A stretch of 54,714 nt of DNA from an uncultured virus (IMG/VR IMGVR_UViG_3300029309_000002). Its lineage: Duplodnaviria > Heunggongvirae > Uroviricota > Caudoviricetes. A program made the position numbers and the translations under genes. Positions 7,903-31,300 of this stretch are shown one piece after another (positions within the stretch are counted from its first letter, which is position 1; each line of letters opens with the position of its first letter). The notes under the pieces are model-generated. The model saw only the letters and a list, made by a program, of their open reading frames with translations. It did not search any database and was not told where the DNA came from. Where the stretch lies: IMG/VR virus record IMGVR_UViG_3300029309_000002; one strand, 5' to 3'.

Positions 7903-8012
7903 CAACTCACATATTTGTATTAGCAGCTGGAATACTTGCCGGCATATATATAGCTTCTCAGATAGAGAAGGGTATTGATAAAAATATTAATAGAGATAAA
8001 GATGGACGTTAA
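7884..8012 (+). CDS. Small single-TM protein (42 aa, not in ORF track)
   Basis: METIYITTHIFVLAAGILAGIYIASQIEKGIDKNINRDKDGR; short overlaps with both neighbours. Confidence 0.55.
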   Translation: METIYITTHIFVLAAGILAGIYIASQIEKGIDKNINRDKDGR

Positions 8013-8712
8013 AGAAATTCAAGAGAAATTTATGAACAAGCTCTCAGATGCTGCTGAGAGTCCATATGAAGGTTGGGTAGAGGCGCTTTGGAATACAGTA
8101 AATTCTAAAGCATTCTCTGATCCACTACTAGCGTTAGCTAAGGAAGTTGATAATGGTAAAAAGTTTACACCTAAATTTCCTGATTTACTTAAAGCATATG
8201 AGATGTGCCCATATAAAGATCTTAAAGTTGTTATTATTGGACAAGATCCATACCCTCAAGAAGGAGTTGCTGACGGAATAGCATTTAGTTGTTCAAAGAC
8301 TAACAAAGAACAACCATCATTAAGATATATATTTGATGAACTACAAACACAGTATCCAGATGCAACCAGAGACTGTGATTTAAGTAGATGGTCTAAGCAA
8401 GGCGTGCTTATGTTAAACACCGCACTTACATGTGAAGTAGATAACATTGGAGCTCATGTTAATATATGGAAGCATTGGAGCCAATGTATATTTGCTCATA
8501 TTTTAACTGATCATCCTAACAATCTTCAGTTTGTGTTTATGGGTGCTAAAGCAAAACCATTTGCTAAATCTATTTCTAATGATCATCACAAACACTTTGT
8601 AGTTCATCCAGCTGCGGCTGCATATAGAGGAGGTAAATGGGATTCAGGTAATCTATTTATAAATATTAATAAAAATCTAAGAGAGTTAGGTTATAAAGAA
8701 ATTGAATGGTAA
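8002..8712 (+). CDS. ung: Uracil-DNA glycosylase, family 1
   Basis: KVVIIGQDPY, GIAFS, QGVLMLNTALT and HPAA motifs; the ATG at 8002 is more likely than the TTG at 7975. Confidence 0.92.
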   Translation: MDVKEIQEKFMNKLSDAAESPYEGWVEALWNTVNSKAFSDPLLALAKEVDNGKKFTPKFPDLLKAYEMCPYKDLKVVIIGQDPYPQEGVADGIAFSCSKTNKEQPSLRYIFDELQTQYPDATRDCDLSRWSKQGVLMLNTALTCEVDNIGAHVNIWKHWSQCIFAHILTDHPNNLQFVFMGAKAKPFAKSISNDHHKHFVVHPAAAAYRGGKWDSGNLFININKNLRELGYKEIEW

Positions 8713-9926: not shown

Positions 9927-10157
9927 ATGGAAAAAGAAGACATATTATATTTATTAGAAAATAAGATCTGGGTGTCTTGTCACCCTGTAAAAAAGAAAAT
10001 CAATGTTTATAACAAACAAAAATGGGAAATGGCTATCTATGAAAAGCAAGGAGCCAGATGGTTGAAAAGAAAAAGAAAACTATTCAACCACCCAGCTTCC
10101 GCATATGAATGGGCTCAACAATATTTAATAAAGAATATTTTAGCTTTTAGTGAATAA
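9927..10157 (+). CDS. Hypothetical phage protein, last gene of the + strand block
   Basis: 76-aa ORF directly abutting the SPL-like gene; overlaps the convergent gene by 18 nt. Confidence 0.65.
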   Translation: MEKEDILYLLENKIWVSCHPVKKKINVYNKQKWEMAIYEKQGARWLKRKRKLFNHPASAYEWAQQYLIKNILAFSE

Positions 10158-10502
10158 AGCGTATTCAAGTACTACTGCAGAACTTGATGCTTCAGCTTGT
10201 AATCCTTTAGTAGCTTTTACAGGAATAAATGCAAATTCACCTGGACCTAAATCTATTGTAGCGTTACCTGCACCGTCTGAAAATACAGCAGTATTAGTAT
10301 TGTCTGTATTTTTAGCATAGATGTAAGTCACATCTGCTGCTGTTGTATCTACAAGTGCAATTTTTGTAGCTGCAACAGATATTCTTGCTATACCTATAGT
10401 TGGTTCTTTAGTTCCTAGTGTTTTATTTACTACTATGCTCAAGCTATCACTTGTTGCGTTAGCTGAACTAATGGTTAGTTGTGTTGTTACTGATGATGCC
10501 AT
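10140..10502 (-). CDS. Ala/Thr-rich beta-type protein, possible virion component
   Basis: 120 aa; YIYAKNTD and LGPGEFAFIP motifs are suggestive of small phage structural proteins. Confidence 0.7.
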   Translation of the reverse strand: MASSVTTQLTISSANATSDSLSIVVNKTLGTKEPTIGIARISVAATKIALVDTTAADVTYIYAKNTDNTNTAVFSDGAGNATIDLGPGEFAFIPVKATKGLQAEASSSAVVLEYALFTKS

Positions 10503-10520: not shown

Positions 10521-10796
10521 TTAAACCCTTTTTTTTCTAGTTTTAGGGTAGTTTCTTTTACTACCCTTAACTCTACTCTTTTCTTTTTTACCACGGTTCT
10601 TAGAAGATGACATTACAACCGTCTTCTTTGAGCGTGGACCATTTGGGTGATGAAGATCTTTTCCATCTCCCCTACGTACTTTACCAACTTTAAGACCCTG
10701 TCTACGGGCTTTGTTCCTAGCCGCTCTATCTTTCTTTGCTTTAGTAGAGGACTGGAACTTCTTATATTCCCTTTTATAGTTTCTCTTTGCTGGCAT
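10521..10796 (-). CDS. Small basic HNH-like protein
   Basis: RAARNKARR...GDGKDLHH...SKNR pattern; very Lys/Arg-rich. Confidence 0.7.
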   Translation of the reverse strand: MPAKRNYKREYKKFQSSTKAKKDRAARNKARRQGLKVGKVRRGDGKDLHHPNGPRSKKTVVMSSSKNRGKKEKSRVKGSKRNYPKTRKKRV

Positions 10797-10800
10797 ACAT

Positions 10801-10817
10801 TATAATATACTAAAATT
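10801..10817 (-). promoter_or_regulatory. Putative phage late promoter (AATTTTAGTATATTATA on - strand)
   Basis: One of four near-identical copies upstream of - strand genes. Confidence 0.6.
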
Positions 10818-10968
10818 ATAGCTCAAATCCTAGATTACAGATCATAAATCTGAACCTCTTTGATTCCCACTTTAATTCTAATACAGTAAAAGTACCCAAT
10901 CTAAACTCTAGATAGTACTTCTCTTTTTTGTTACCGGCTGCAAAGCCGTTTATCCAATCTATTTTCAT
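10816..10968 (-). CDS. Hypothetical 50-aa protein (not in ORF track)
   Basis: MKIDWINGFAAGNKKEKYYLEFRLGTFTVLELKWESKRFRFMICNLGFEL; fills the gap exactly. Confidence 0.65.
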   Translation of the reverse strand: MKIDWINGFAAGNKKEKYYLEFRLGTFTVLELKWESKRFRFMICNLGFEL

Positions 10969-10969
10969 T

Positions 10970-11341
10970 CTATTTTCTTTTGCCACCGTGGTATGCTACA
11001 GCATGTCCCTCAGTGATTAGTAATTGATTTACATTTTTTAGAGTTAAGCAGTCTTTACCATCTAACACATCTACGTGTAGTTCACCTAGACATCTACCAT
11101 ACTTACCTACACCAAAGGAATTTAGTTGTATTGATTTGGCCCCTTCTAGTATAGCTTTAAGTCTATCTTTGGCTGCTAACCCTCTTGCTTTTTCTTCAAG
11201 GTCTCTTGTTCTTGACTCAGGAGTATTAATACCATGTAGTCTTATACGTTTTTTAACTTTAACACTGAAGCCTAGATCTATATAAGCATCTACGGTGTCT
11301 CCATCTACACAACGTATTAATTCAATATTATAGGTATACAT
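10970..11341 (-). CDS. Thermonuclease (staphylococcal nuclease-like)
   Basis: VDGDT, RIRLHGINTPE, GKYGRCL and LITEGHA..Y motifs. Confidence 0.88.
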   Translation of the reverse strand: MYTYNIELIRCVDGDTVDAYIDLGFSVKVKKRIRLHGINTPESRTRDLEEKARGLAAKDRLKAILEGAKSIQLNSFGVGKYGRCLGELHVDVLDGKDCLTLKNVNQLLITEGHAVAYHGGKRK

Positions 11342-11736
11342 TACTTCTTCTTTACCTTTTCTATTGATCTTCCTCCAAAGTATGCACCAATAACTGTTAT
11401 CAAAACAAGTTGTAACAGGTCAGTCCATTTCTCCTCTACTTCAAAGCTTATTGCACCTGCGTCAATAAATATTAACAACATTGTGCAAACAATAAGAAAT
11501 ATAAGCACCATAGGTCTTACATTCTTAGATAACCAACTGTCTGAGTTCATGTCTGCAGTCCAGCGGTTAGTTATTTGTTTCTCCATCTCAGCCTCATGGC
11601 TCAAGATGAGTTCCTTTAGTTTTCTTTTGGCTTCTAGCTTTTCCTCTTTACTAGTGGTTAGATTATCTAATACACCACCAACAGATTCAACTAGATCACC
11701 TCCAGCGGAACTAAAGATCTTCTTTAAAATACTCAT
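11341..11736 (-). CDS. Holin-like membrane protein (GTA_holin_3TM-like)
   Basis: TSKEEKLEAK, SDSWLSKNVRP followed by TM segments and YFGGRS.EK. Confidence 0.75.
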   Translation of the reverse strand: MSILKKIFSSAGGDLVESVGGVLDNLTTSKEEKLEAKRKLKELILSHEAEMEKQITNRWTADMNSDSWLSKNVRPMVLIFLIVCTMLLIFIDAGAISFEVEEKWTDLLQLVLITVIGAYFGGRSIEKVKKK

Positions 11737-11739
11737 ATA

Positions 11740-11904
11740 TTAACGTGTTTGTCCTCCGCAACCACATCCACCTGCTTTTTTTACCGGTCTAGATGGCATA
11801 GACAGCTTTGTTAGTAGACTTGCTTGTCCACCGTTACCTGCCTTTGGAAGGAGTTTTCCTTTTGCAGCTGGTCTTGTGCTTCTTCTTGATCCTTTAAATC
11901 CCAT
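11740..11904 (-). CDS. Small basic Gly-rich protein (54 aa, not in ORF track)
   Basis: MGFKGSRRSTRPAAKGKLLPKAGNGGQASLLTKLSMPSRPVKKAGGCGCGGQTR; start overlaps the upstream stop. Confidence 0.65.
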   Translation of the reverse strand: MGFKGSRRSTRPAAKGKLLPKAGNGGQASLLTKLSMPSRPVKKAGGCGCGGQTR

Positions 11905-12194
11905 TACTTAACTTTTTTACCTAGCTTTTTAGCTAGAGCATTAAATAACTTCATAGCACCTTTCATCTGCTTACCTTGTTGAGCACGGACCATATTCATA
12001 ACATCATTAGGCATAGACATACCTGTGCCCATACGTGCTCTTCTCATATAAGCTCCACCTCCACCATACATAGTTTTTGAACCTGCTGTTCCACCTTCTT
12101 GTCTGTAGCTTCTTCTTTTTTTACTTTTCATTTTTTTCTTAGAGCCTCCTCCTGTTCCGTAGGACATACCTGCTCTTCTCATATTTGCTGGCAT
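11904..12194 (-). CDS. Small basic Gly/Met/Lys-rich protein
   Basis: 96-aa low-complexity ORF with repeated xxGG motifs. Confidence 0.7.
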   Translation of the reverse strand: MPANMRRAGMSYGTGGGSKKKMKSKKRRSYRQEGGTAGSKTMYGGGGAYMRRARMGTGMSMPNDVMNMVRAQQGKQMKGAMKLFNALAKKLGKKVK

Positions 12195-12198
12195 AATT

Positions 12199-12315
12199 TT
12201 AATCTTTTTTAGTTAAACAATCATCATTTTTTCCACAACATTTGTCTGCGCACCACTTAAGTGATACAGTGTTAAACGTTATCAAACACACTGCTTTACA
12301 TATGAATTCTTTCAT
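12199..12315 (-). CDS. Small Cys-rich protein (38 aa, not in ORF track)
   Basis: MKEFICKAVCLITFNTVSLKWCADKCCGKNDDCLTKKD; ATGA overlap with the upstream gene. Confidence 0.55.
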   Translation of the reverse strand: MKEFICKAVCLITFNTVSLKWCADKCCGKNDDCLTKKD

Positions 12316-12527
12316 TTGTTTTTAATTTTTTCTAATGAGCTAATTCCAAAACTCCCTAGGGTTACTATTACAAAACTATTATATATAACATCATTTATTA
12401 CAAGTTCCATCCCAGATAGGCCAGTAATAAGATCAGCAATAGCAAATAATACCATTAATATAAAAGAGGCAAAACCTACTATTGCTTTCTCATTGATGTC
12501 ATTTTTATCTTTAAATATACTCCACAT
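12312..12527 (-). CDS. Small two-TM membrane protein (holin-like)
   Basis: Two hydrophobic helices; C-terminal GSFGISSLEK. Confidence 0.7.
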   Translation of the reverse strand: MWSIFKDKNDINEKAIVGFASFILMVLFAIADLITGLSGMELVINDVIYNSFVIVTLGSFGISSLEKIKNK

Positions 12528-12554
12528 AGTTAATCACTATCATCATTATAATTA

Positions 12555-13001
12555 CTATGATGCAGACTCATCAGCAACACTCCAAGTTATAGCTGCTCTT
12601 GCTGGACTTACATTGGCTAATGGATATGGAAAACCTAATGTATCTACATGATAAAGTCTTGTATTTGACTCTAATGCATTTTGCCATTCAGTTAAAAAAT
12701 ATTTACCGTTTTCTGCTAACTTTACCTCGTTGTCAGATCCAGGAGCTGAAAAAGACCAAGCAGCAACTTTTAATGTATCTGGTTTTAGTGCAGTACCTAC
12801 ATCTAAAGCTGTTAAAGTCTTAACATAAAATGTAGTAAAGTCAGAACTCTTACCTATAGTTCTTACTGAAAAGTCTACATCTTTTATATCTGCTAAAGGG
12901 ATCATCATGGCACTACCTTTCTGCCCATCTCCTATCATTAAAAATTTTTCCTCAATAGGGATTCTGGTTTGATGTTGCTTAGTTGAATTTATTAAACCCA
13001 T
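12555..13001 (-). CDS. Hypothetical late protein
   Basis: 148-aa ORF preceded by the late-promoter-like motif. Confidence 0.75.
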   Translation of the reverse strand: MGLINSTKQHQTRIPIEEKFLMIGDGQKGSAMMIPLADIKDVDFSVRTIGKSSDFTTFYVKTLTALDVGTALKPDTLKVAAWSFSAPGSDNEVKLAENGKYFLTEWQNALESNTRLYHVDTLGFPYPLANVSPARAAITWSVADESAS

Positions 13002-13032
13002 TTTTTTATCTTTTATTAATTAATACTTATAT

Positions 13033-13048
13033 TATAATATACAAAATT
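13033..13048 (-). promoter_or_regulatory. Putative phage late promoter (AATTTTGTATATTATA on - strand)
   Basis: Copy of the repeated motif, 31 nt upstream of the ATG at 13001. Confidence 0.6.
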
Positions 13049-13490
13049 ATTTTGTAATATGCACATCTATACCAGGATTTGTGTTACGCACATTACACCC
13101 CGCACCCTCAGCTGGTATATCTACTCTAAATGCTATTTGTAAATCTTCTTCTTCAATGGTTGTAGCAGACTTACCAATTACATATGAAAATGCTCTATCA
13201 AAGTAATGTCTATCTATTGTTAGTGTCTCACCCTTAGCTAAAGGTTTTTGATAATATATATAGAATCCATCATTAATAGGGATTAATGCTGTTGAACCAT
13301 TTAATGAACCTTTTATAAAGGCTACAGTAAGTAATAGCCCCTGCGCACAACTATTGACATTACATATAGTAATCTTATTTACCTTAGTTCCATCTTCATG
13401 ATCTGCTGTAGGTCCTGCATTACCAACAACCTGTAATGATCCATTAGTATCTATTCTATGAAATATTGTTTTTATTTCTCCAGATCTCAT
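13047..13490 (-). CDS. Hypothetical beta-rich protein, possible virion component
   Basis: 147-aa ORF; KITICNV...LAKGETL pattern. Confidence 0.7.
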   Translation of the reverse strand: MRSGEIKTIFHRIDTNGSLQVVGNAGPTADHEDGTKVNKITICNVNSCAQGLLLTVAFIKGSLNGSTALIPINDGFYIYYQKPLAKGETLTIDRHYFDRAFSYVIGKSATTIEEEDLQIAFRVDIPAEGAGCNVRNTNPGIDVHITK

Positions 13491-13669
13491 TTCTTCTTAC
13501 GTTTTTTAGCAATTTTTTTAAGTGTCTTAGCAAATCTACATCTATAACCGGCCTTTTTACTAGGTGGGTTCTTGCAGTATTGTGCTATAGTCATACCTTT
13601 ACGCTTGGCAGCAGCAGTTAGTGAGCCAGGCTTTTTTATAGCTTTCTTTATGTCAAGTTTCTTTGCCAT
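13487..13669 (-). CDS. Small basic protein (KKAIKKPGSL...RCRFAKTL)
   Basis: Start more likely at 13669 (TAATG overlap), giving a 60-aa Lys-rich protein. Confidence 0.7.
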   Translation of the reverse strand: MAKKLDIKKAIKKPGSLTAAAKRKGMTIAQYCKNPPSKKAGYRCRFAKTLKKIAKKRKKK

Positions 13670-13935
13670 TAACACTTCCACCTTTTTCTTGCTAGACAAG
13701 CTCTTTTCTTAGGAGTCTTTCTGCAATCTATTCTAAACTTTTTAATCTGACCTAGGTTTCTTGCACAAAAAGATCTTTTACGTGGTCCACCTCCAGGTTG
13801 TGGTGCTTTAAGTTTAGACCCGGTTTTTCTATTGATCATCTTACGGCCCTTAGCAGTAAGACCACCTGACTTGCTTTTACAACCATTCTTGATTGTACAG
13901 CCTGACATTCCTCCTTTTTTACTTCTTTTAGGCAT
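13669..13935 (-). CDS. Small basic protein, DUF6321-like
   Basis: GGLTAKGRK...GSKLKAP...RKRSFCAR...ARKRWKC pattern recalled from phage DUF6321 proteins. Confidence 0.7.
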   Translation of the reverse strand: MPKRSKKGGMSGCTIKNGCKSKSGGLTAKGRKMINRKTGSKLKAPQPGGGPRKRSFCARNLGQIKKFRIDCRKTPKKRACLARKRWKC

Positions 13936-14159
13936 TATTTTCCAACTTTTTTCTGTGCCATTTTATGAGAAGCTCCAAATGATGCACCATTTTTCATAGC
14001 ATTAACCATCATTGCTATATGCTTTTTTGAATGATGCACAGAATGTTTTTCAAGTGTTTTTTGTTGTCTCATTGTTAAAGCGCATACGTCAACACCTTTT
14101 ACTTTACCTATACATGCAGTCTTTTTTTGACCACCTTTTTTATAATATCTTTTATTCAT
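13935..14159 (-). CDS. Small basic His-rich protein
   Basis: LTMRQQKTLEKHSVHHSKKH...SHKMAQKKVGK; TAATG coupling to the next gene. Confidence 0.7.
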   Translation of the reverse strand: MNKRYYKKGGQKKTACIGKVKGVDVCALTMRQQKTLEKHSVHHSKKHIAMMVNAMKNGASFGASHKMAQKKVGK

Positions 14160-14164
14160 TATTT

Positions 14165-14386
14165 CTACTTTTTTTTAGTTTTACGTTTTTTCCAGCTGAT
14201 TCTCTTTGGACCAGTTTTTTTTCTAGCTGCAGAAGTACACTGTGCTTTAGTTGGTCTACAAGCAGGATAAGCTCTCTTAGATCCGCCCTTTGCAGACTTT
14301 CTTCCACAAGGTTTACCGGTCTTGCAGTCTATCCAACCTTTACCGTTATTTCTACTAAACCATTTATGTAAGCTTTCTTTAGCCAT
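14165..14386 (-). CDS. Small basic Cys-containing protein
   Basis: SLHKWF...WIDCKTGKPCGR...YPACRP. Confidence 0.72.
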   Translation of the reverse strand: MAKESLHKWFSRNNGKGWIDCKTGKPCGRKSAKGGSKRAYPACRPTKAQCTSAARKKTGPKRISWKKRKTKKK

Positions 14387-14547
14387 TATTTTTTCTTTTT
14401 AGACTTATTGCCCCAGTTAGCAGCACCAACTTTTCTACATCTTACCAATGCACCGGATGCATAAGCTGAAGGCCATACACTATATCTTGCTCTTACTTTA
14501 TTGTAACAAGCATCTCTTTTAGCTTTTTTCTTTTTTTTCTTTGCCAT
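14386..14547 (-). CDS. Small basic protein (53 aa, not in ORF track)
   Basis: MAKKKKKKAKRDACYNKVRARYSVWPSAYASGALVRCRKVGAANWGNKSKKKK; TAATG overlap with the next gene. Confidence 0.75.
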   Translation of the reverse strand: MAKKKKKKAKRDACYNKVRARYSVWPSAYASGALVRCRKVGAANWGNKSKKKK

Positions 14548-14550
14548 AAT

Positions 14551-15606
14551 TTATCTTATTAAATAGTTAACACCTACTTTAAAATCGTACCACTTCCTGT
14601 CCCAGTACTTATTATATACTCCCTCAACAAAGGTCCCTAGGTTCTTTGTTATCTTGTATCCAAAGATGATTCCAGTAGAATAATCCAACCATTGTTCACC
14701 ATCATTGAAGTTATGGTAAGAATACTGACCACCATCATTATAGTGATAAGGAAGCAAGTTACCCCAGGAATGTAACCAGAAGTCTTTCTTATAAGTATAA
14801 TAATCAAATCCAATAATCAGAGAGTGCACCCATTGCCTGTCAAGCTTATCTTTCTCATTTCTAGTATAGTCTGAGATAACACCGGGGATCACAACTTCTT
14901 CCCAAACCTCTGGGGATGTTGCTACTAACTTACCACTTGGATCGTAATACTCACTGTTGTACACATCTACAGAGTATCCTTCCTGTATTGCTAGATAAGT
15001 ATAGTGAATGCCACCATTGTCTAGCAACCAAATAGACAAAGGATCAAACCCATATGGTTGTGAAATTCTCTGACATGCCCCTATGTTAAAAGAGAGCTTT
15101 TTATCTGATCTTAACCTAAGTCTTTGTGATGCTTGGAAATACTCTATGTCTGCAAATCCATCTTGTATATACTGCACCTTCGTCATCCACTTGTTAGCTA
15201 CATATCTAATGAAGTGTTGTTGGTCTATATACTTAACTCCTTGTTGTCGCCTTATGTCTATTTCAGATAAATACTCAAACTTACCCTTAAGTCTCCCTAA
15301 TGTAGCTGCATCGTTATATGAAGTCTCTGTTCCATCCTTAAATGGTGTAGCTGGTTCATACTGAAATCTTTGTATCTTTCGTACTCCAAACGTTGCTGAG
15401 TAATCAAACGGTGTCTTTACAACATCTTCTGTTAGTAGCCCAGTTGTAACGGAAAAAACACTCTGATCTGAAATAGAGTTACCCCCATTAACTGCTGTAT
15501 AAAAAGTAGAATACTTAAAAAACCCATCAAACGGATTCTGAGCACAACACTTTTTTGGCGCTACACATGATGCTAGAAATAATATGACTATTAATATAAT
15601 TCTCAT
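14551..15606 (-). CDS. Exported putative outer-membrane beta-barrel protein
   Basis: N-terminal signal (LASC lipobox or CCA|Q cleavage), amphipathic aromatic-rich strands and C-terminal DFKVGVNYL resembling a beta-signal. Confidence 0.6.
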   Translation of the reverse strand: MRIILIVILFLASCVAPKKCCAQNPFDGFFKYSTFYTAVNGGNSISDQSVFSVTTGLLTEDVVKTPFDYSATFGVRKIQRFQYEPATPFKDGTETSYNDAATLGRLKGKFEYLSEIDIRRQQGVKYIDQQHFIRYVANKWMTKVQYIQDGFADIEYFQASQRLRLRSDKKLSFNIGACQRISQPYGFDPLSIWLLDNGGIHYTYLAIQEGYSVDVYNSEYYDPSGKLVATSPEVWEEVVIPGVISDYTRNEKDKLDRQWVHSLIIGFDYYTYKKDFWLHSWGNLLPYHYNDGGQYSYHNFNDGEQWLDYSTGIIFGYKITKNLGTFVEGVYNKYWDRKWYDFKVGVNYLIR

Positions 15607-15616
15607 AATTTTATTT

Positions 15617-16003
15617 TTATGCTGCCTTTACTCTAGTTCCAGCTTTTGCATAAGCTACTAAATAACTTCCTGTTTTAGGATCTATCCTTTTAAATTTTCC
15701 AAGTATTTCATCTTGAGCACTAAGTCTTATATTAGTAGGATATGCTCCCATACCTGTAGAAGTTGGACCTGATGCACCTGTTACTCCTAGGACTTCCCAA
15801 CTATCTGATGGAGTCATACCAGGTGCGGGATTTACAACTAACTCTGAAGTTCCAAGTGCTACTATTTTATAGAAGAAGCCATTTTCAGCTACTACACCTT
15901 TATCTCCTACTAATACTGTAATACCAGGTAAAACTACTTCTGCAGTATTGTCTTCTGTTTTTGCAGCGTAACGCTCCATAGGTTGTCTATTTGTTGTTGC
16001 CAT
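15617..16003 (-). CDS. Hypothetical protein
   Basis: 128-aa ORF between the T9SS-CTD and beta-barrel-like genes; no signal peptide. Confidence 0.72.
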   Translation of the reverse strand: MATTNRQPMERYAAKTEDNTAEVVLPGITVLVGDKGVVAENGFFYKIVALGTSELVVNPAPGMTPSDSWEVLGVTGASGPTSTGMGAYPTNIRLSAQDEILGKFKRIDPKTGSYLVAYAKAGTRVKAA

Positions 16004-16007
16004 AATT

Positions 16008-18932
16008 TTAATTTTTAATAATTTTTTTAATAATTGTTTTATCGTTTAATGTTATATGTAAATGATATATACCATCTGCATAGTTAGAAAGATCTAATGT
16101 TGATGCATTTGTCTCAGTTATAATTAATTTACCTAGATGGTTATATACTTTTATATTTACGCTTTTTCCTGCTATATTAACTATACCCGGTGTTGGATTT
16201 GGATATAATATAATTGCATCTATTCCTATTCTTGCTGGTGGCTCTGGTCCAGTCCATGTTGTACCACAATAATCATATGTTAATTGACATGTTTCATCCC
16301 ATTCTTGATTACAACAATAATCATCTACACTGATAACCCATGCATAGCATTCATCATTTAACCAATATGGTTCTCCTGGATTACCAACACATCCGGCATC
16401 ATATAAACAAGATAGAGAGTCATTAACATTTGCTAACGGTTCATAATTCCACGCATCTTGGTCCATACACCCTGTAACCACTTCAATACAAGAGCCGTTC
16501 TCAGTATTAGCCAACGGATCATAATTAAGAGCAGAACTATCAGTACAGCCATAGATGTAAGCAATACAACTAAAATCTTCCGTATTGGCTTGTACGTTAT
16601 AATTGAGCATAGAAGGGTCAGTACAACCATAAATAATAGGTATACAAGAATTATCAGTAACATTGGCTAAAGGATTAAAATTAAACATAGTAGAATCCAT
16701 ACAGCCAAAGACAAAAGGTTCACAAGAACCATTATCTACATTAGCTAGTGGATCATAATTAAACATAGAAGCATCCATACATCCGTATATAAATGGAATG
16801 CAGGTGCCATCATCCACATTGGCTTGAGGATCATAGTTAAACATTGTAGGATCAGTGCATCCATATGATGGATATATACAACCATTATTTACAGTTGCGG
16901 TTGAATCATAGTTAAGTGCTGTTGAGTCAGTACAACCTACATAATAACAACTCCCATCATCAGTATTAGCATTAGAGTTATAATTATCAGCGTTAGCATC
17001 TGTACATCCGTTAATTATTGGTATACAATTACCATCATCTATATTTGCTAGTGAATCATAATTTAAGGCAAATTCATTTGTGCAACCATAGATAAATGGA
17101 ATACATGTATTATCATCAACATTTGCATTTGGATCATAATTAAAAGAATTTGAATCCATACAGCCTAATACTGTTGGTATACAAGTTGTACCACAGAAAG
17201 GTATGTCAATATATTTTGTCCAAAATGGTGACTCAAATGATTGAAGTGCACCTTGACCGTTATTAGCAAAAGGGTTTTGTCCTTCATGCAACAATACAAC
17301 ACCATTTGCATTTGTCAACTTAAATGAGTTATGCCAAGTTTGAAACTGTACTTCTTGTGGTGGTTGTTGTGGACCTCCAACTTCAAAGTAATAAACCTCT
17401 ACTGGTACTCCAGGATCTAATATAATGTTCCATGAGTCATCATAGTTACCAGGTCCCATTGTATATGTTCCTAAGTTAATACCATTTTGATAAACACCAA
17501 TATATGAATTACCCCAACCATCACCAGCTGCATCAAATATTTCTAATAGATAATTACAATCTGGTATTAGGTCCATCATGGTTGCATTAGAGTCATAATT
17601 AAACGCATTAGGGTTTGTGCACCCATATACATGTAATGTAGAACATGAGCCATCATCTATTGTAGCTTGTGGATCAAACTCTACATAATCATCATCCATA
17701 CAACCAGGAGTTGGTGGTATAATTGGGCATGGGGTAGCAAGTTGTTGTCCTGAATATAGTACGTTTCCAAATCCAGGGTTGTCCATATACCATATAGTAT
17801 CACCATCACAGTTATAAATAACAATCATACCATCCATAGAACCACCTGAAGTAGATCCTGCCATACCATCACCATAGGTATCATTAACTACTAACTCAAA
17901 ACCTGCATTCTGATCTACACAGAAAGTATAAGTATATGTTTGTCCTATATCATTAAAATCATATGCTCCCGGTTGCTCTTCTCCTATTACACCTGCACTA
18001 TTCATTAACCAAGATGTTTCTCCAGGCCAATTGTCTAATGTAATCTCCATTGTTATTTGATACTGAAAAGTAGTATCACATGTTGTTCCTGAACATGATC
18101 CATCATCATACGTTGCCCAAGGGTTGTATGATATTTGAGTTGGGTCTGTACATCCTGCTATACAAGGAGTGGGGGTATAAAATATAGTATCAGACAAACT
18201 ACCATCTGCAAACTCTACTTGACCATAATGTTCTACTTCCCAGTTAGGGGGCATTTGACCATTACCTGCATACACAGCAAAATCAAGTGCTCCTGGTCCA
18301 AGACCATATTGAAAAGGGCCTACACCTTCCTCATTTGAATACCAGAATTTTACAGGCTCACAACTAACATTATTATCTAAAGTCCAATTAAAAAATACAA
18401 GAGTTTGTCCGCCAGGTAAGCATGTTTGTGATGCAGTAGAACTAAGAAAACCGTCACAAGGCAGATAAGTACAAGAACCATCATCTTGAGTAGCGGTTGA
18501 ATCATAATTTGTTGCATTTGTGTCTATACATCCAGGAATTACAACAGGGGGAGCACATGGTGCTATTGTTAATGTATCTATATAATCAAAACCAAAGTCC
18601 CCTGCTACATACAATATTGTATCTTGACAATCATTTTGTATTAAAAGCCATCCTTCAGGTGAACCATTAAAACCACCTAAACCATCTCCATATTGATCAA
18701 ATAGAGAAAAAATGATATCTCCTCCAACAGCAACTGTATCTGAATACAAAGTCTGATCAGTCATTAAAGAATCAGATTGTGCAATAATTGGTGAACCACC
18801 TGGAGGTGTTATAGTCCATGAAGTTTCTTCAGGATAATCATCTGTTAACAATTGTATGTTAACCCAACTATTTTGTGATAAAATTATATTAGGTAAAACT
18901 AATAATAATAATATGTATATTATTTTTCTCAT
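16008..18932 (-). CDS. Secreted Cys-repeat protein with T9SS (Por) C-terminal sorting domain
   Basis: Sec signal peptide MRKIIYILLLLVLPNIILS|Q; 14 GC(T/M/I)(D/N)...N(Y/F)...A...DDGSC-type repeats; C-terminal LYPNPT...IKVYNHLGKLI...LDLSNYADGIYHL...KKIIKN, a type A CTD pattern. Confidence 0.85.
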   Translation of the reverse strand: MRKIIYILLLLVLPNIILSQNSWVNIQLLTDDYPEETSWTITPPGGSPIIAQSDSLMTDQTLYSDTVAVGGDIIFSLFDQYGDGLGGFNGSPEGWLLIQNDCQDTILYVAGDFGFDYIDTLTIAPCAPPVVIPGCIDTNATNYDSTATQDDGSCTYLPCDGFLSSTASQTCLPGGQTLVFFNWTLDNNVSCEPVKFWYSNEEGVGPFQYGLGPGALDFAVYAGNGQMPPNWEVEHYGQVEFADGSLSDTIFYTPTPCIAGCTDPTQISYNPWATYDDGSCSGTTCDTTFQYQITMEITLDNWPGETSWLMNSAGVIGEEQPGAYDFNDIGQTYTYTFCVDQNAGFELVVNDTYGDGMAGSTSGGSMDGMIVIYNCDGDTIWYMDNPGFGNVLYSGQQLATPCPIIPPTPGCMDDDYVEFDPQATIDDGSCSTLHVYGCTNPNAFNYDSNATMMDLIPDCNYLLEIFDAAGDGWGNSYIGVYQNGINLGTYTMGPGNYDDSWNIILDPGVPVEVYYFEVGGPQQPPQEVQFQTWHNSFKLTNANGVVLLHEGQNPFANNGQGALQSFESPFWTKYIDIPFCGTTCIPTVLGCMDSNSFNYDPNANVDDNTCIPFIYGCTNEFALNYDSLANIDDGNCIPIINGCTDANADNYNSNANTDDGSCYYVGCTDSTALNYDSTATVNNGCIYPSYGCTDPTMFNYDPQANVDDGTCIPFIYGCMDASMFNYDPLANVDNGSCEPFVFGCMDSTMFNFNPLANVTDNSCIPIIYGCTDPSMLNYNVQANTEDFSCIAYIYGCTDSSALNYDPLANTENGSCIEVVTGCMDQDAWNYEPLANVNDSLSCLYDAGCVGNPGEPYWLNDECYAWVISVDDYCCNQEWDETCQLTYDYCGTTWTGPEPPARIGIDAIILYPNPTPGIVNIAGKSVNIKVYNHLGKLIITETNASTLDLSNYADGIYHLHITLNDKTIIKKIIKN
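16407..17169 (-). repeat. Ten tandem ~26-codon intragenic repeats (GCxD...ANxDDGxC)
   Basis: Visible in the translation from LGCMDSNS to ANVNDSLSC; four more dispersed copies lie further 5' in the gene. Confidence 0.85.
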
Positions 18933-18941
18933 GTTTATATT

Positions 18942-19292
18942 TTAAAAGTCACTCATTATTAAATCATCTATTGCTTCTTGTACTTCCTCTCTAGTTCCTA
19001 CCATTTTAAATGATAAATCTGCTTGGAACCTTGCTACCTCTTCTCCATCTTTAAATATAATAATAGTAGGTACAGATGCTATTTTATATTTTTTCTGTAT
19101 ACCTTCTTTATCTATAGAAAGCTTTTTCTTTTGACATTCTTTTAACTTACTAAACCAAGTTACACTATTTGCTTCATTCCAACCAGCATTAAAATGTATT
19201 GCTGTAATCTGTGAATAAGCATCTGATGAGGCAAACAATAAAAATAATGCAAATAAATAAGTCAAAAATATTTTCCATACTTGGTCTCTCAT
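18942..19292 (-). CDS. Exported thioredoxin-fold protein lacking CxxC
   Basis: Signal peptide ending AYS|Q; HFNAGWNEAN in place of DFWAxWCxxC; YKIASVPTIIIFKDGEEVAR cis-Pro loop retained. Confidence 0.8.
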   Translation of the reverse strand: MRDQVWKIFLTYLFALFLLFASSDAYSQITAIHFNAGWNEANSVTWFSKLKECQKKKLSIDKEGIQKKYKIASVPTIIIFKDGEEVARFQADLSFKMVGTREEVQEAIDDLIMSDF

Positions 19293-19303
19293 AATCTTAT
19301 AAT

Positions 19304-19435
19304 TTAACGGCCTTGGCCTCTATATTTCTTTTTCCTTCTGCTTTGACCTTTAGATGCATTTTTACTATGCACTCCTGGTCTTTTCTTTCTTTTCTTAGAA
19401 ATATAGGTTAATAATTTTTTCTGTCTTTTTGCCAT
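19304..19435 (-). CDS. Small basic protein ending KKYRGQGR (43 aa, not in ORF track)
   Basis: MAKRQKKLLTYISKKRKKRPGVHSKNASKGQSRRKKKYRGQGR; TAATG overlap. Confidence 0.72.
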   Translation of the reverse strand: MAKRQKKLLTYISKKRKKRPGVHSKNASKGQSRRKKKYRGQGR

Positions 19436-19719
19436 TACTTTAGTTTATCTATTTTTTCTTCTATTCTTTTTATGTCCTCTTTAATCTCTTTAACATCATC
19501 TTGTGTATTCATAATGGTTCCACGGATCATTTGGTCTTTCATATCAAACTCCATCCTTGTAACATCTGGTGGTGGTGGTACTGGAAGTTCTTTAGCTTCT
19601 TCTATATCTGCTTGTAAAGCAAACCACATCCCCACTACAGTTGCTATTGCAAATGCAATACCAATAAGTGTTTTTACACTTACTTTAAAGCTAGTATCTT
19701 CATTTAATTCTTTAGCCAT
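19435..19719 (-). CDS. Single-TM protein with Pro-rich linker and coiled coil
   Basis: N-terminal TM (LIGIAFAIATVVGMWFAL), PVPPPP, then heptad-like VKEIKEDIKRIEEKIDKL. Confidence 0.78.
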   Translation of the reverse strand: MAKELNEDTSFKVSVKTLIGIAFAIATVVGMWFALQADIEEAKELPVPPPPDVTRMEFDMKDQMIRGTIMNTQDDVKEIKEDIKRIEEKIDKLK

Positions 19720-19723
19720 AGTA

Positions 19724-20203
19724 TTAATATAATTTTATATTATGTTTATTTACTTGCAAGTTACAATTAATCAAAAATCCTGATGTTTTTGATGAATAAT
19801 ACTCTAGTGTATGATCATACTGTAAATATTCAAAACCACTAAAGTCAAAAACTTTACAGCTTTTTTTATCCAATCCTTGTATTATATCTACATCACTCAT
19901 TCTTTCTTCTTGTGATGTAACATAATCCTCATATACTAACATAAACTCATCTCCCACAGCTCCAGTTAATTTATTTACTACTCTAATTCCAAACTTAATG
20001 GGCTCCCCTGTTGTAGTATGATGAAAACTCATATATCCTAAACACTTTTTATTCATTGCATGATAATTAGAAGTCAAATCAGCAGGTGCAGTTTGTTGTG
20101 GAATAAGTGTTGTCCAAGCATCTGCAGTAGAACAACTTGTTTGCTGAAAGAATCTTGTATTAACAGAACCTGATGCTGTATGTTGGGGAGTTGGAGCAGC
20201 CAT
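19724..20203 (-). CDS. Hypothetical protein
   Basis: 159-aa ORF, TAATG coupled. Confidence 0.72.
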   Translation of the reverse strand: MAAPTPQHTASGSVNTRFFQQTSCSTADAWTTLIPQQTAPADLTSNYHAMNKKCLGYMSFHHTTTGEPIKFGIRVVNKLTGAVGDEFMLVYEDYVTSQEERMSDVDIIQGLDKKSCKVFDFSGFEYLQYDHTLEYYSSKTSGFLINCNLQVNKHNIKLY

Positions 20204-20514
20204 TATGTAAAAAATATTAACTTAATTATCACACCAACAATAGCAGTAAACAGTATCCATAGTGCTTTTGAAACATTATCTTTCCACTTCTTTACATCAT
20301 TAAAGTCTTCAATCATTTCATCTAAGTAAGGCATTTCTTCTTCTCTTAGTTTTCTAAATGCGGTATTTTTATTCACTCTTGTAACAAACCCATTGTCTGG
20401 ATCTAATAATTTTTTAGTTAAAGCATCTAATTTCCCATCTATTTCTTCTAGCTTTTTTTCCATATTATCCATTCTTAGTGACATAAGTTCCATATTTGTA
20501 GTATTATCAGCCAT
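20203..20514 (-). CDS. Coiled-coil protein with C-terminal TM helix (XhlA/holin-like topology)
   Basis: RMDNMEKKLEEIDGKLD...ALWILFTAIVGVIIKLIFFT. Confidence 0.75.
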   Translation of the reverse strand: MADNTTNMELMSLRMDNMEKKLEEIDGKLDALTKKLLDPDNGFVTRVNKNTAFRKLREEEMPYLDEMIEDFNDVKKWKDNVSKALWILFTAIVGVIIKLIFFT

Positions 20515-20559
20515 TACTTAGAAACAATTCTTATATTTGTAAACTATTTTATATACATA

Positions 20560-20574
20560 TATAATATACAAAAA
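20560..20574 (-). promoter_or_regulatory. Putative phage late promoter (TTTTTGTATATTATA on - strand)
   Basis: Copy of the repeated motif at the head of the 10140-20514 gene block. Confidence 0.62.
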
Positions 20575-20695
20575 TGATTTAAGAAAAGAAAGTTCTTATT
20601 CTATAAATTTATCTCTGATATTATATAGAAATAAAATTTATTTTGAGTATCTTATAAGTCCCTACTTAATATTAACCTAATAAAAAAATAATAAA

Positions 20696-22555
20696 ATGAA
20701 CAGAAGTAACAAAATCCTTAGTGACATAACAGTACATATGAAGTATGCAAAATATATCCCAGAACTTAACAGAAGAGAAAGTTGGGAAGAACTAGTAACA
20801 AGAAACAAAAGCATGCATTTGAAAAAATTTCCTGATCTTAAAGAAGAGATAGAAGAAGTGTACAAGTTTGTTTATGATAAAAAGGTTTTGCCTTCTATGA
20901 GATCTATGCAGTTTGGTGGTAAACCAATTGAGATTTCACCCAATAGAATATATAATTGTGCATACCTTCCTGTTGACTCTGTTGAATCATTTAGTGAAAT
21001 AATGTTTTTATTACTTGGTGGTACAGGTGTTGGTTATTCTGTTCAAAAACACCATATAGAAAAGTTACCACAGATAAATAAACCATATGCAAAAAGAACT
21101 AAAAGATATTTAATTGGTGACTCTATTGAAGGCTGGGCTGATGCAGTTAAAGTACTTGTAAAGTCTTACATGAATGGTAGATCATCTAAAGTTATCTTTG
21201 ATTATTCTGATATAAGACCTAAAGGTGCAAGGCTAGTTACATCAGGTGGTAAAGCTCCAGGACCACAACCACTTAAAGAATGTTTACTTAAACTTGAAGG
21301 ATTATTAAGTGCAAAAGAAAATGGTGATCAGCTAACTACACTTGAGGTGCATGATATGGTATGTCATATTGCTGATGCTGTACTTGCTGGTGGTATTAGA
21401 CGTGCTGCTCTTATTAGTTTATTTAGTGCAGATGATGACCAAATGATTGGTGCTAAGTCAGGAGCATGGTGGGAACATAATCCACAACGTGGTAGAGCTA
21501 ATAACTCAGCTGTATTAATGAGACATAAAATAACTAAAGAGTTTTTTATGGATCTATGGAAGCGTGTTGAGTTATCTGGTGCAGGTGAGCCTGGTATATA
21601 CTTAAATAATGACAAAGACTGGGGTACTAACCCGTGTTGTGAAATAGCATTACGTCCTTATCAATTCTGTAACTTATGTGAAGTAAACGTGTCAAATGTG
21701 GTGTCTCAAGAAGATTTGAATGAAAGGGTAAAAGCTGCAACATTTATTGGAACACTTCAAGCAAGTTACACTAACTTCCACTACCTCAGACAGATATGGA
21801 AAGAAACTACAGAAAAAGATGCACTTATTGGTATATCTATGACTGGTATTGGAAGTGGTAAAGTCTTAAATCTTAATGCTTCTGAGTCAGCACTTATAGT
21901 AAAAAAGGAGAATGCAAGAGTTGCAAAGCTTCTAGATATAAGATCTTCTGCAAGATGTACTACTGTAAAGCCTGCGGGTACTACATCACTAACTCTAGGA
22001 ACTTCATCTGGTATACATGCTTGGCATAATGATTACTATGTAAGAAGAATACGTGTAGGAAAGAATGAGGCTATCTATACATACTTGCTTACAAATCATC
22101 CAGAACTTATTGAAGACTGTTTCTTTAGACCTGCTGATACTGCTATTATTAGTATACCTCAAATGGCTCCTGAAGGATCTATACTTAGAACAGAGTCTCC
22201 ATTTGACTTACTTGAAAGAGTAAAAAAGATATCACAAGAATGGATTGCTCCTGGGCATAGAAGGGGTTCTAACTCTCACAATGTATCCGCTACAGTATCA
22301 CTTAAAGAAGAAGAGTGGGAAAAAGCAGGTAACTGGATGTGGGATAATAGAGAGCACTACAATGGATTATCTGTATTGCCTTATGATGGTGGTACATATA
22401 CTCAAGCTCCATTTGAAGACATTACAAAAGAGAAATATGAGGAATTACTAGAAACTCTAAAATCTGTTGATCTATCTAAAGTTGTAGAACTTGCAGATAA
22501 TACAGATCTTAAAGGTGAACTAGCTTGTGCTGGTGGTGCTTGTGAGGTTATATAA
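20696..22555 (+). CDS. nrdJ: Class II (adenosylcobalamin-dependent) ribonucleotide reductase, monomeric RTPR type
   Basis: YNCA, GTGVG, RRAALI, TNPCCEI, TVKPAGT and C-terminal ACAGGACE motifs; no small-subunit gene adjacent. Confidence 0.9.
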   Translation: MNRSNKILSDITVHMKYAKYIPELNRRESWEELVTRNKSMHLKKFPDLKEEIEEVYKFVYDKKVLPSMRSMQFGGKPIEISPNRIYNCAYLPVDSVESFSEIMFLLLGGTGVGYSVQKHHIEKLPQINKPYAKRTKRYLIGDSIEGWADAVKVLVKSYMNGRSSKVIFDYSDIRPKGARLVTSGGKAPGPQPLKECLLKLEGLLSAKENGDQLTTLEVHDMVCHIADAVLAGGIRRAALISLFSADDDQMIGAKSGAWWEHNPQRGRANNSAVLMRHKITKEFFMDLWKRVELSGAGEPGIYLNNDKDWGTNPCCEIALRPYQFCNLCEVNVSNVVSQEDLNERVKAATFIGTLQASYTNFHYLRQIWKETTEKDALIGISMTGIGSGKVLNLNASESALIVKKENARVAKLLDIRSSARCTTVKPAGTTSLTLGTSSGIHAWHNDYYVRRIRVGKNEAIYTYLLTNHPELIEDCFFRPADTAIISIPQMAPEGSILRTESPFDLLERVKKISQEWIAPGHRRGSNSHNVSATVSLKEEEWEKAGNWMWDNREHYNGLSVLPYDGGTYTQAPFEDITKEKYEELLETLKSVDLSKVVELADNTDLKGELACAGGACEVI

Positions 22556-22625
22556 AAGTACCTATCACAAACATAACAACCATTACTACTATATAAATTG
22601 CTGGAGTTATATCTATCCTCTTCAT
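22548..22625 (-). CDS. 25-aa hydrophobic peptide (not in ORF track)
   Basis: MKRIDITPAIYIVVMVVMFVIGTFI; a variant late-promoter motif lies immediately upstream; stop overlaps the nrdJ end. Confidence 0.45.
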   Translation of the reverse strand: MKRIDITPAIYIVVMVVMFVIGTFI

Positions 22626-28301: not shown

Positions 28302-31300
28302 TTATTTTAAATAACATTTTTTAATATTCTCTATAAATTCTTCTGCATCTATTGGATATGATAAATAAGCTTCCATTATTTGATCCTTGGTTCCTACTTT
28401 TTCTTTTTGCTCTTCTGTTAAGTTATCATAAAATGCTTCAACTAATCTATCTTTTGTAAGTTCTAATTGTTCTTCTAATGATTCTGTACCAGGATCAACA
28501 TCTTCAGCTTCTGCTTCTGTTGTTGCTTCTTCTGCTACTCCCAATGCAGAGAATAGTTCAGCTACCTGATCTTCTCCTTCTCTAGCATCTTCTTCTGTAG
28601 TAAAGTCTTCCTCTTGCGCTTCAAAATCATCTGAAACATCTTCTACATCCATTGCAAATTTAGCTAAATTAAGTTGATCTATCTGCTGTTCATTAGGACT
28701 TTCTCCAAATACAAAACCAACTACATTCTGTGATCTTGAACCTTTTGGTGGACCTATGTTCTCATAACGTAAATAGTTTCCAAATACTTTTGTTTCATTT
28801 GTAGGTAACAATAGATCTAATTTATCTTCCGCTTTATAATCTCCATCTCTCTGTACTTCAACAAGCTTATAAACTTCATCCACACCATCTCTATTACTTC
28901 TTAAAAACTCTAAAGGTGCATCAACCTCTAGTCTAACAAACGTTTTACCCTGTACTTTTATTTCTCTCAATTTAGTAACAAAACCAGCTTTTCTTATTTC
29001 ATTAGCATTATCTTTTAATTTTTGGATACCTGTAGCATCTCCTTTTTTAACCTTTAGTCTTCTTATTTTCTTTACAGTTTTATCAAAGAATGTAGGTAAC
29101 CCTTTATATAGATCAACAATAAACTCACCTTTAACAGTATCGTCATATACAGGACTCTTAAGCGCATCTTTAGAAGCCTTTTCTCTTTCAGTTATTTTTT
29201 CTGTAGATATATATTTTAAATCTTCAACACCATTTTGATCTTTAACTGTCTCAAATCTTAACTGAGATCTAGCTTGTGAAATACCCTGTCTAATGGCATC
29301 AGCATCAGCTTTTGTTTCACCAACAAAATCAAACTGTGAGTTATAAACAACTTGTTGAGCTAATGGTACACCATTCTCAGTTTCCATATTAGCATTCTGT
29401 AAGATAGAAATTCTAGTTAATTGTGTAAGTAAAGCTGCGTTATCCTTACCTTTTCTTTTACTCTTAAGTTTACCTGTACCTCTTTTACCTGGTATAGAAT
29501 CTATTGCATCTTCTTTACCAGCTCTCCACTTCTTATCTAAACTAGCATCAAAACTTCCACTTAACATAACCTGATATGCATGTTCCACACTATAGAAAGT
29601 TTTGCCAGCATATGTAAAAGATCTCTTACCATATCTAGAAAGCATATTAGATGAAGTTTCTGACTCAGTAACATCAGCATCTATAATTATTCTACCATCT
29701 TCATAATCTATCTCTTCATACTCACCTAAATATGAAGTAGCTATAGCATCATTATTTTTTCTTTTTAAGAAAAATTTATTGCTTGTTCTTTGTAGATATT
29801 CAAATACTATATACTCTTTAAGATCAGAGTATGTTTTACCAAATACTCTTTTGTATGCCTCATCTCCTGCTTTTTCTGTAAGGAATAACTTTTGTACCTT
29901 ATCTATTGAGTTTAATATATCTCTTGTTAGATCAATTGGTAAAACAGATATAAATGAATTCTTTGCACGCATAAACCCATCTTTAACAAGAAGATAATTT
30001 ACTAAATGAAGAGTATCTTTATATGTCCTACGGTTACTATATAAAGATAATATATCATTTTGAATGTTAGTTAGATTAGCATCTGATAGTCTTGTAAAGT
30101 TATTTGTTATAACTTGTGTTAAACCCTCATAGTTATGCTCGCTATCAACTTCACGTAAAGATATAAACTCATCTATAAAGTAATTGTAATCACTATTTTC
30201 TCTTAATCTTGTAACAACACCTACTATATCCAAATTCTCTGTTATACCTGCAGCTTTTTGTTCTGCTGTTAGTGGTTTGCCATACTTAGCATTTGGATAA
30301 ATAAACGCATTATTTAAACTTGCAAGTTGTGTGCCATTGTATTGTGAATCATTTCTAAGTGATTCCATATATGCCATTGTATTTAATATAGCAATAACAT
30401 TATTAGTTAGAGCAACAAAGTCTGCTTTATCTCTTATCGTTGTACTACCCAATATAGTATTCTCAATCTCTTTGAATGGATCTGTTAACTCTATAAAGAG
30501 CTTAGGTAATAAATCTGTTCTTAACTCTTCAAATGCGTTAAAATAAAATGCATGGAATGAATTTTCTCCTTTAAATATTGGTCTAACATCAAACGGTAAA
30601 TTGCTCTCTGCAAACTCTTTGTTGCTCATATACAAGCCAAGTTTCTCAGCAGCTTTAGATATCTCATTAAAGTCATATAAATCTCTTGTGAAACCTGTTT
30701 GTAATTGTAGCAAAACTGACATATTGTACATAAAGTCAGCTTGTCCTAGCGCTATAGTAAACTGTTCTAAAAATGTATACTCAAATACTAGGTCATTAAT
30801 TGGTGTTTTAGGGTCAATCTCATCTGATGCTAACTCAGGATTTATTGGAGTTCTTCTCACACTATCTATTAAGTTTTCCCTATTAAATTTAAATTTAATT
30901 TTATCTCTATCAACTTCATTATCAGCAAAATAATCTTCAAGAGCTAACATCCTTAGACCTAATAATTTAGCAAAACCAGGATCAAACATATTCTCTTTAT
31001 TTGTAGCTTCAAACAATGCTTTTTTAATTGTAGGATGTTGTAACATTAGAACAGTGTCTTTTATATTAAGACCCATTGCAGTCATTTGAGTTACCATACC
31101 AAGTGTTTGTTTCTTTAATCCTAACTTAGCAGCTAATCTTTCTTTAGCATTATCTGTCATTGCTGTCACAAGAGCAGATATAATAAACTGTGTTCTAAAT
31201 AATTTTGGATCTGCTACACCTTCATCATTAATAACATAGTCAACAAATTTGGTGTATTCTACATCATTATATGTAAATCTTTTTATTTGTTCAACATCAT

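Follow-up and report, generated by a model that had tools for sequence, protein, structure and literature searches.

A candidate type IX secretion cargo with an exchangeable head in a marine crAss-like phage

We analysed a 54,714-nt stretch of DNA from an uncultured virus (IMG/VR record IMGVR_UViG_3300029309_000002), here called the window, which carries on its minus strand a gene, P0001 (16008..18932), encoding a protein of 974 amino acids (aa). [quoted passage not shown] Judged by CTD hidden Markov models (HMMs), terminal motifs and the N-terminal signal peptide, P0001 is predicted to be a type A T9SS cargo. It is flanked by genes for a predicted outer-membrane (OM) beta-barrel, a membrane-anchored coiled coil and a thioredoxin-fold protein, in an order that varies between loci; we refer to these three as the trio.

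The CTD occupies aa 905-974 (16011..16220, minus strand). TIGR04183 matched aa 909-974 (16011-16208) at 43.5 bits (E 2.3e-11; cut-off 23 bits) over model positions 1-72 of 72, and PF18962 matched aa 909-972 at 48.5 bits (cut-off 27 bits). A first-pass annotation of the window had proposed a type A CTD on a phage protein at 16008..16215 and named an hmmsearch with TIGR04183 as one check; with both models above their cut-offs and the motifs at the extreme C-terminus, the proposal holds, although its interval takes in the tag and leaves the signal peptide, head and stalk outside. The motifs are YPNP, YNHLG, GIY and KKIIK, and the terminal strands of type A CTDs are described as carrying YxxxG, GxY and KxxK (PMC5445135, PMC11969387). 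Among the CTDs of 22 relatives, P-N-P, two Gly and a Tyr are invariant. When a control HMM was built from the CTDs of 40 relatives, excluding the tails of the window and its sister, the real tail scored 75.7 bits and the best of 1000 shuffled versions 10.4 bits. The top PDB sequence match of the CTD was chain D of 8GLK (75 aa, matched full-length, E 2.1e-5), which we take, by inference from PMC10994853, to be the CTD of NucA caught within the SprA-PorV translocon. In all eight pairs compared, the ratio of nonsynonymous to synonymous substitution rates (dN/dS) of the CTD was 0.11-0.55, one of these pairs having just 3 changes, and the domain is under purifying selection. The GC content at third codon positions (GC3) of P0001 is 0.17, and that of the large late genes is 0.11-0.19. 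P0001 is thus better read as a phage gene of long standing that selection maintains than as a recent acquisition.

The identity of the phage was read from the nearest record, the 115-kb sister genome G001, which is 91-93% identical to the window in nucleotides (nt) over the two longest flanking matches. Because G001 encodes, in a part that the window does not cover, a crassvirus major capsid protein (PF23898, 106 bits) and ring protein (PF25702, 70.7 bits), the window is assigned by homology to a crAss-like phage, and the phage origin proposed for the protein stands on the same genes. Six sequencing runs contain at least half of the region, and all six are marine metagenomes. G001 has one TIGR04183 gene, and L027, the sister locus compared below, lies in a record of equal length with matching coordinates.

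The remaining parts of the product fit an exported, non-enzymatic rod. A Sec/SPI-type signal peptide is predicted at aa 1-19 (18876..18932, minus strand), with two basic residues, an h-region Kyte-Doolittle (KD) value of 3.42 and cleavage before Q20, leaving a mature Gln start. Signal peptides were judged here by a heuristic (charge, h-region, cleavage before Gln) rather than by SignalP, and the same heuristic was passed by 40 of 44 complete cargos, the window included. By heuristic no internal membrane helix was found in P0001 (maximum KD19 1.43). The head (17175..18875, minus strand) comprises domains A1 (aa 20-126), B (158-258), A2 (286-404) and C (458-586), set apart by single two-cysteine repeats; A1 and A2 are homologous (34% identity). 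AlphaFold modelled aa 20-587, from 30 sequences, as all-beta sandwiches (pLDDT 77.5, pTM 0.48). In the fold comparison, the rows of which covered domain B alone, this domain resembled the FN3 fold (Z 9.1, rmsd 2.7, 90 aligned), so that in the model it is FN3-like, a shared fold that shows no function. A Foldseek search of the PDB with the whole head gave just multi-domain beta-sandwich noise (TM at most 0.16), the head profile gave only short Cys-driven matches in the PDB, and in the ESM Atlas all leads for domain A were below 0.8. Some relatives have a MAM domain at the N-terminus. Since scans against NCBIfam, Pfam and PHROG matched no catalytic family in P0001, the product does not appear to be an enzyme. 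The dN/dS of the head against L001, a locus with the same head type, was 0.095, pointing to strong purifying selection.

Behind the head follow 10 tandem two-cysteine repeats of ~26 aa, the stalk (16389..17165, minus strand), and then the small cysteine-rich domain D (aa 849-900; 16233..16388, minus strand), just N-terminal to the tail and the best-conserved part of the family (mean identity 0.78 over 51 sequences). The whole protein has 14 two-cysteine repeats and 46 cysteines; complete relatives have about 9-31 repeats. Residues 20-904 are strongly acidic (118 D+E vs 4 K+R) and the CTD is basic (pI 9.0). Four stalk-type repeats also occur in a 1937-aa protein of the structural region of G001 (L151:7646-13459, plus strand), which has no signal peptide.

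The gene is apparently a mosaic. Between the window and L027 the flanks are 94-95% identical, 14374-17063 is 84% identical and 17063-18939 cannot be aligned. Positions 16266-18559 (2294 nt), by comparison, are 89.7% identical to L001, the barrels of the two being just 65% identical. In 40-codon bins, aa 126-720 are 80-97% identical in nucleotides to L001 and 45-75% to L027, and aa 881-974 are 90-98% identical to L027 and 54-64% to L001, which puts a probable crossover zone in the stalk at aa ~720-880. The CTD shares 64 of 70 residues with sister L027 and 29 of 70 with the head-donor type L001. Trees of 27-28 dereplicated loci place domain C of the window with L001, L005 and L023 (98/93) and its D plus CTD with L027 (100/100), rejecting a window+L001 grouping of the latter (p-AU 9e-5). 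The same conflict is seen elsewhere: L014 and L023 form a clade by tail (100/99) that is rejected by head (p-AU 2.3e-5), and P0002-P0004 place three other heads on the tail of the window lineage. The tree pairs were picked after the identities were known, making these p-values optimistic. Sequence comparison thus suggests that the head came from a distant phage and the CTD from the sister lineage, and such within-gene head exchange is new here. An assembly chimera of two co-occurring phages, in which CTD and signal peptide would themselves be real, would give a similar picture, and cluster mates with a near-identical head do bear the donor tail. We consider a chimera improbable: two sources supply the 4 contigs on which the exact protein is found; 92-95% of the words of 13000-22600 occur in three runs, drawn from two samples (one run may be the source); the signal peptide of the window is unlike both parent types (4-10 of 19); and head and tail conflict in the other loci as well.

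The cargo family appears to be large, common in ocean viral DNA and found almost only in phage DNA. Relatives of the cargo were found at 53 IMG/VR loci, against one distant, repeat-rich match (36%) among GTDB genomes, and 1162 protein clusters have D plus CTD. In BFVD, one such protein already bears the name 'Secretion system C-terminal sorting domain-containing protein [uncultured virus]'. In a set of 301 Flavobacteriales genomes, 55 gave D plus CTD matches, all in the CTD region at 30-48% identity except for a single full match, which lies on a phage contig in a metagenome-assembled genome (MAG); domain D was unmatched in 300 of the 301. It could still be argued that P0001 came from a host, by recent capture or through mis-assembly of a host fragment, and does nothing for the phage, since large proteins that combine these repeats with CTDs are also made by marine Flavobacteriales (a UBA6772 MAG has 35 CTD matches in its genome). 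The viral bias of the family, the restriction of bacterial matches to the CTD region, the fixed linkage to the trio, the purifying selection and the phage-like GC3 largely refute this, and we regard it as highly improbable.

The linkage rests on the following neighbours, all on the minus strand. The barrel (14551..15606, 351 aa) has a signal peptide and was modelled by AlphaFold with 12 long strands (pLDDT 72); its closest fold was NanC (Z 10.7, rmsd 4.4, 161 aligned), and FadL gave Z 7.1. PorV and PorP barrels have 14 strands, and no PorV or PorP chain was among the listed fold matches of the barrel. The thioredoxin-fold protein (18942..19292, 116 aa) is predicted to be exported and has no CxxC, a motif found in 0 of its 44 homologues; its matches to thioredoxin are weak and below cut-off. 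The third gene (19435..19719) encodes a 94-aa protein in which a single transmembrane helix is combined with a coiled coil at the C-terminus; mean column identity across 24 homologues is 72%, and maximum KD19 is about 2.0-2.3 in the 12 listed of 42. Between cargo and barrel lies a 128-aa ORF (open reading frame; 15617..16003) without a family match, 44% identical to its counterpart in sister L027, its sole relative among the 53 loci. The barrel is present at 46 of the 53 cargo loci, the other 7 being cut by the locus end on one side. In a sample drawn independently of the cargo, the top 80 out of at least 546 matches to the barrel in IMG/VR (loci not dereplicated), 47 loci had D plus a type A CTD and 15 had D plus a short tail; of the rest, 8 broke off within the cargo where the contig ends, and 10, all truncated on one side, had no cargo. 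All 30 loci with full flanks that were picked by barrel alone contained the cargo. Linkage of cargo and module genes is therefore shown at the level of gene neighbourhoods. Since the same four genes are found on crAss-like contigs and, beside an amidase, on a contig read from gene content as a T4-like phage, the module appears to cross phage groups.

A phage contig in a bacterial genome bin (L144; G194:C32) has the four-gene module with an amidase and genes that, by eye, resemble those of the queuosine pathway. Beside a distant barrel, L171:4504-7972 (plus strand) is a phage operon of exported proteins that includes a cohesin plus type A CTD protein and several unnamed signal-peptide proteins. 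Several candidate generalizations failed. A trio-only clade of distant barrels, described below, ruled out that the cargo is obligatory for the trio. That the trio is strictly phage-only was ruled out because 1 of 401 Flavobacteriales genomes (G061) has a distant barrel by itself amid ordinary chromosomal genes; this homologue (L145:8380-9594; G061:C35) occurs in 1 of 17 genomes of its family, and a second copy is broken. A barrel-CTD correlation (rho 0.34) was rejected as a sign of co-evolution, as linkage and shared descent explain it.

Variation of the tail within the family offers a further view of the sorting signal. Once 6 near-duplicates and 4 cut genes had been set aside, the C-termini of 43 of the 53 relatives were scanned: 35 passed TIGR04183 and the other 8 ended in a short tail of 40-45 aa with a motif-B-like element and terminal basic residues. 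With the mini-cargo described below, three tail forms occupy the slot: the full type A CTD, a ~41-aa host-type tail and a Prevotella-like tail on a mini-cargo of ~175 aa. Short CTDs of three strands have been proven in Prevotella intermedia (PMC11969387). The 41-aa tail was found in 101 of the 301 Flavobacteriales genomes, often in at least 20 copies, and all but one of these genomes are 0.8-2.3 Mb; it formed the protein end in 6 of 6 loci inspected (L138-L143). Among genomes with this tail, PorU was present in 5 of 5 tested and SprA in 3 of 5. The tail matched no NCBIfam model and no Pfam T9SS model. It shows motifs B and E without GxY, and its hhalign alignment to the full CTD, over motif B and the last two strands, is weak (E 7e-4, probability 27); the three-strand Prevotella CTDs retain these same elements (PMC11969387). 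A further hhalign comparison of a short tail with the full CTD gave E 0.03. Because full and short tails replace each other after domain D, the slot gives independent support for a T9SS signal, and the interchange suggests that part of this phage group infects streamlined marine Flavobacteriales.

In a second clade of distant barrels, which by HMM had looked devoid of cargo, the mini-cargo lies directly after the thioredoxin gene in 25 of 31 loci (L240-L270; for example L248:9971-10480). Where complete it has 169-196 aa: a signal peptide, one A domain (hhalign 90%, E 1.4e-6) and finally a short tail in which motif B, GxY and a basic end are recognisable. None of 13 mini-cargos had an NCBIfam match and the mini-cargo profile had no match in the PDB; in the ESM Atlas it falls in virus-only unnamed clusters, one with 465 members. 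The notion that the trio lacks cargo outside the long-fibre clade was partly ruled out by this clade. As judged from these alignments, the interchange of three tail forms in one gene slot and the mini-cargo itself would be new here.

Elsewhere, the window has genes for PolB, ribonucleotide reductase and a holin, and for five proteins that measure 867-5171 aa. The holin (11341..11736, minus strand; PF11351 27.3 bits, phrog_3427) lies about 2.8 kb downstream of the barrel, and short, very basic Lys/Gly-rich ORFs of 53-96 aa run between the two (10521-14547, minus strand), some matching unnamed PHROGs and variable between sister phages. Five small minus-strand ORFs (10140-10502, 12555-13001, 13047-13490, 15617-16003 and 19724-20203) diverge fast, being 44-76% identical to the sister or absent from it, against 93-100% for their neighbours; relatives of a 120-aa small ORF are often found in tandem near the module. 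The 5171-aa ORF (28302-43817, minus strand) contains a DFDID motif, which we take to be the signature of a crAss-type virion RNA polymerase, and is probably such an enzyme; the part of it searched against the PDB gave no sequence match. The replication arm carries a spore photoproduct lyase-like gene (PF20903; 9090-9926, plus strand), near a uracil-DNA glycosylase family gene (7975-8712). A promoter scan was uninformative, with 56 sites against 57.4 expected.

How might such a protein serve the phage? We propose that Sec exports the product of P0001, which would fold in the periplasm, where its 46 cysteines can pair. PorV would then catch the CTD at the host SprA pore as the product crosses the OM, and PorU would remove the CTD, leaving the mature protein tied to lipopolysaccharide (LPS) or released. 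This follows the known T9SS path from Sec through the periplasm and PorV/SprA to PorU cleavage and LPS anchoring or release (PMC5445135, PMC10994853). The host would have to be a T9SS-positive Bacteroidota, and P0001 would be expressed during infection. Export by the host T9SS is very probable given the signal peptide and CTD; display on the cell surface, which would follow from export, is the less certain step, though still probable. The mature part would be a non-enzymatic acidic rod whose stalk holds the four beta-sandwich domains away from the cell. A base bound to the lineage and an exchanged tip, as in a receptor-binding fibre, favour a binding protein facing a variable partner; by this analogy, a binding role for the head has roughly an even chance. 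Such a late-made protein on the infected cell would recognise an outside partner, such as competing phages, cells or particles, and would act with the phage envelope module near the lysis genes. When flavobacteria are resistant to dsDNA phages, the resistance is typically traced to T9SS genes (PMC12781566), and together with the exchanged-tip layout this favours a surface binding fibre. On balance, we lean towards a virus-made binding fibre with an exchangeable head, exported by the T9SS and displayed on the surface, that may act in phage-phage or phage-host encounters.

The conserved base and variable tip are also reminiscent of a tail fibre, and P0001 shares the strand and codon use of the late genes. 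A virion part is likewise suggested by short matches to proteins of Synechococcus phages that carry the annotation 'virion structural protein', and by the similar repeats in the structural-region protein of G001. The T9SS would then serve as folding and export line, and progeny virions would pick up the disulfide-rich fibre at lysis, to use it as decoration or as an accessory fibre for adsorption. This is unlikely, as the neighbours with which the gene moves are envelope and lysis genes rather than capsid or tail genes; it also occurs in crAss-like and T4-like phages, whose virions differ, and in one clade exists only in the ~175-aa form. Slightly less likely still is that the cargo mainly jams SprA, PorV and PorU, reducing the display of receptors for other phages, with the head secondary. 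The resistance conferred by T9SS mutations would fit, as would the three tail forms in the same slot, and Bellas et al. proposed superinfection exclusion for the cargo of Cryophage (PMC7468147). A plug would not need a head that is strongly selected and exchanged as a unit, however. About as doubtful is a further idea, that barrel, dead thioredoxin, membrane coil and cargo together form an envelope-spanning sensor for lysis timing in phages of marine Bacteroidota. Here the surface head would detect outside phages or host cells, the barrel would hold or read the cargo, and the periplasmic and inner-membrane parts would signal to the holin or to OM rupture; the device would be built with the host type IX machine and would have passed from one to another of the crAss-like and T4-like phages.

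Several observations weigh against the surface binding fibre. Superinfection exclusion would fit poorly with a late, lysis-linked position. The repeats do not prove a role at the cell surface, since similar ones occur in the G001 structural-region protein that lacks a signal peptide. One clade of distant barrels keeps the trio with an A-domain match in 0 of 80 loci and no CTD match at all in 28 of 31 full-flank loci, so that the trio does not need the cargo; in the remaining 3 the CTD sits on an unrelated protein of ~245 aa, with cohesin plus CTD in the one scanned. Among 50,697 records, no cultured phage had the barrel or coiled-coil gene, and the cargo had short partial matches only, in 7 records. 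Lastly, the head/tail combination of the window recurs only as one exact sequence on the 4 contigs, and the three 90% cluster mates of P0001 have a donor-type tail.

If the protein is secreted, lytic phages would remodel the surface of the infected cell through a host nanomachine, and secretion could be addressed cheaply with the 169-aa mini-cargo or the 70-aa CTD. That full and short tails naturally replace one another in a single gene slot also speaks for a short T9SS signal in streamlined marine Flavobacteriales that is missed by standard HMMs. In titles and abstract openings of the papers searched, we found no description of the cargo fibre family or the trio, and these papers yielded no experimentally tested phage-encoded T9SS cargo.

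Comparison with known systems helps to place P0001. As with type B cargo and its PorP/SprF shuttle barrels (PMC12618676), a cargo gene adjoins an OM barrel gene, but the window tail is type A and the barrel, a 12-strand model nearest to NanC, is also found without cargo. The 40-45-aa tails of some relatives recall the short CTDs of Prevotella intermedia in their motif-B-like element and basic end (PMC11969387); the window tail is the full form, and of the short ones the marine tail lacks GxY and the mini-cargo tail keeps it. Like the bacterial type A cargo described by Lauber et al. in 2024 (PMC10994853), P0001 combines a Sec signal with a ~70-aa CTD bearing motifs B, D and E, but it is encoded by a phage and has its closest relatives in viral contigs. 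The nearest precedent is Cryophage (Bellas et al. 2020, PMC7468147), a Bacteroidetes phage with type A sorting-domain proteins that vary between near-identical genomes; going by part of the text of that paper, phage-encoded type A cargo is known from genes alone there as it is here. Phage type A cargo as such was thus already known, so that, taken as a surprise, the observation of the first-pass annotation is overrated. The cargos of Cryophage, a 76-kb cryoconite phage, are an endoglucanase, a GH39 protein and a PA14 protein (PMC7468147). The cargo here differs from these as a single, apparently non-enzymatic Cys-repeat rod that marine phages of crAss-like and T4-like kinds encode together with a module of barrel, coil and thioredoxin, and whose head is exchanged inside the gene.

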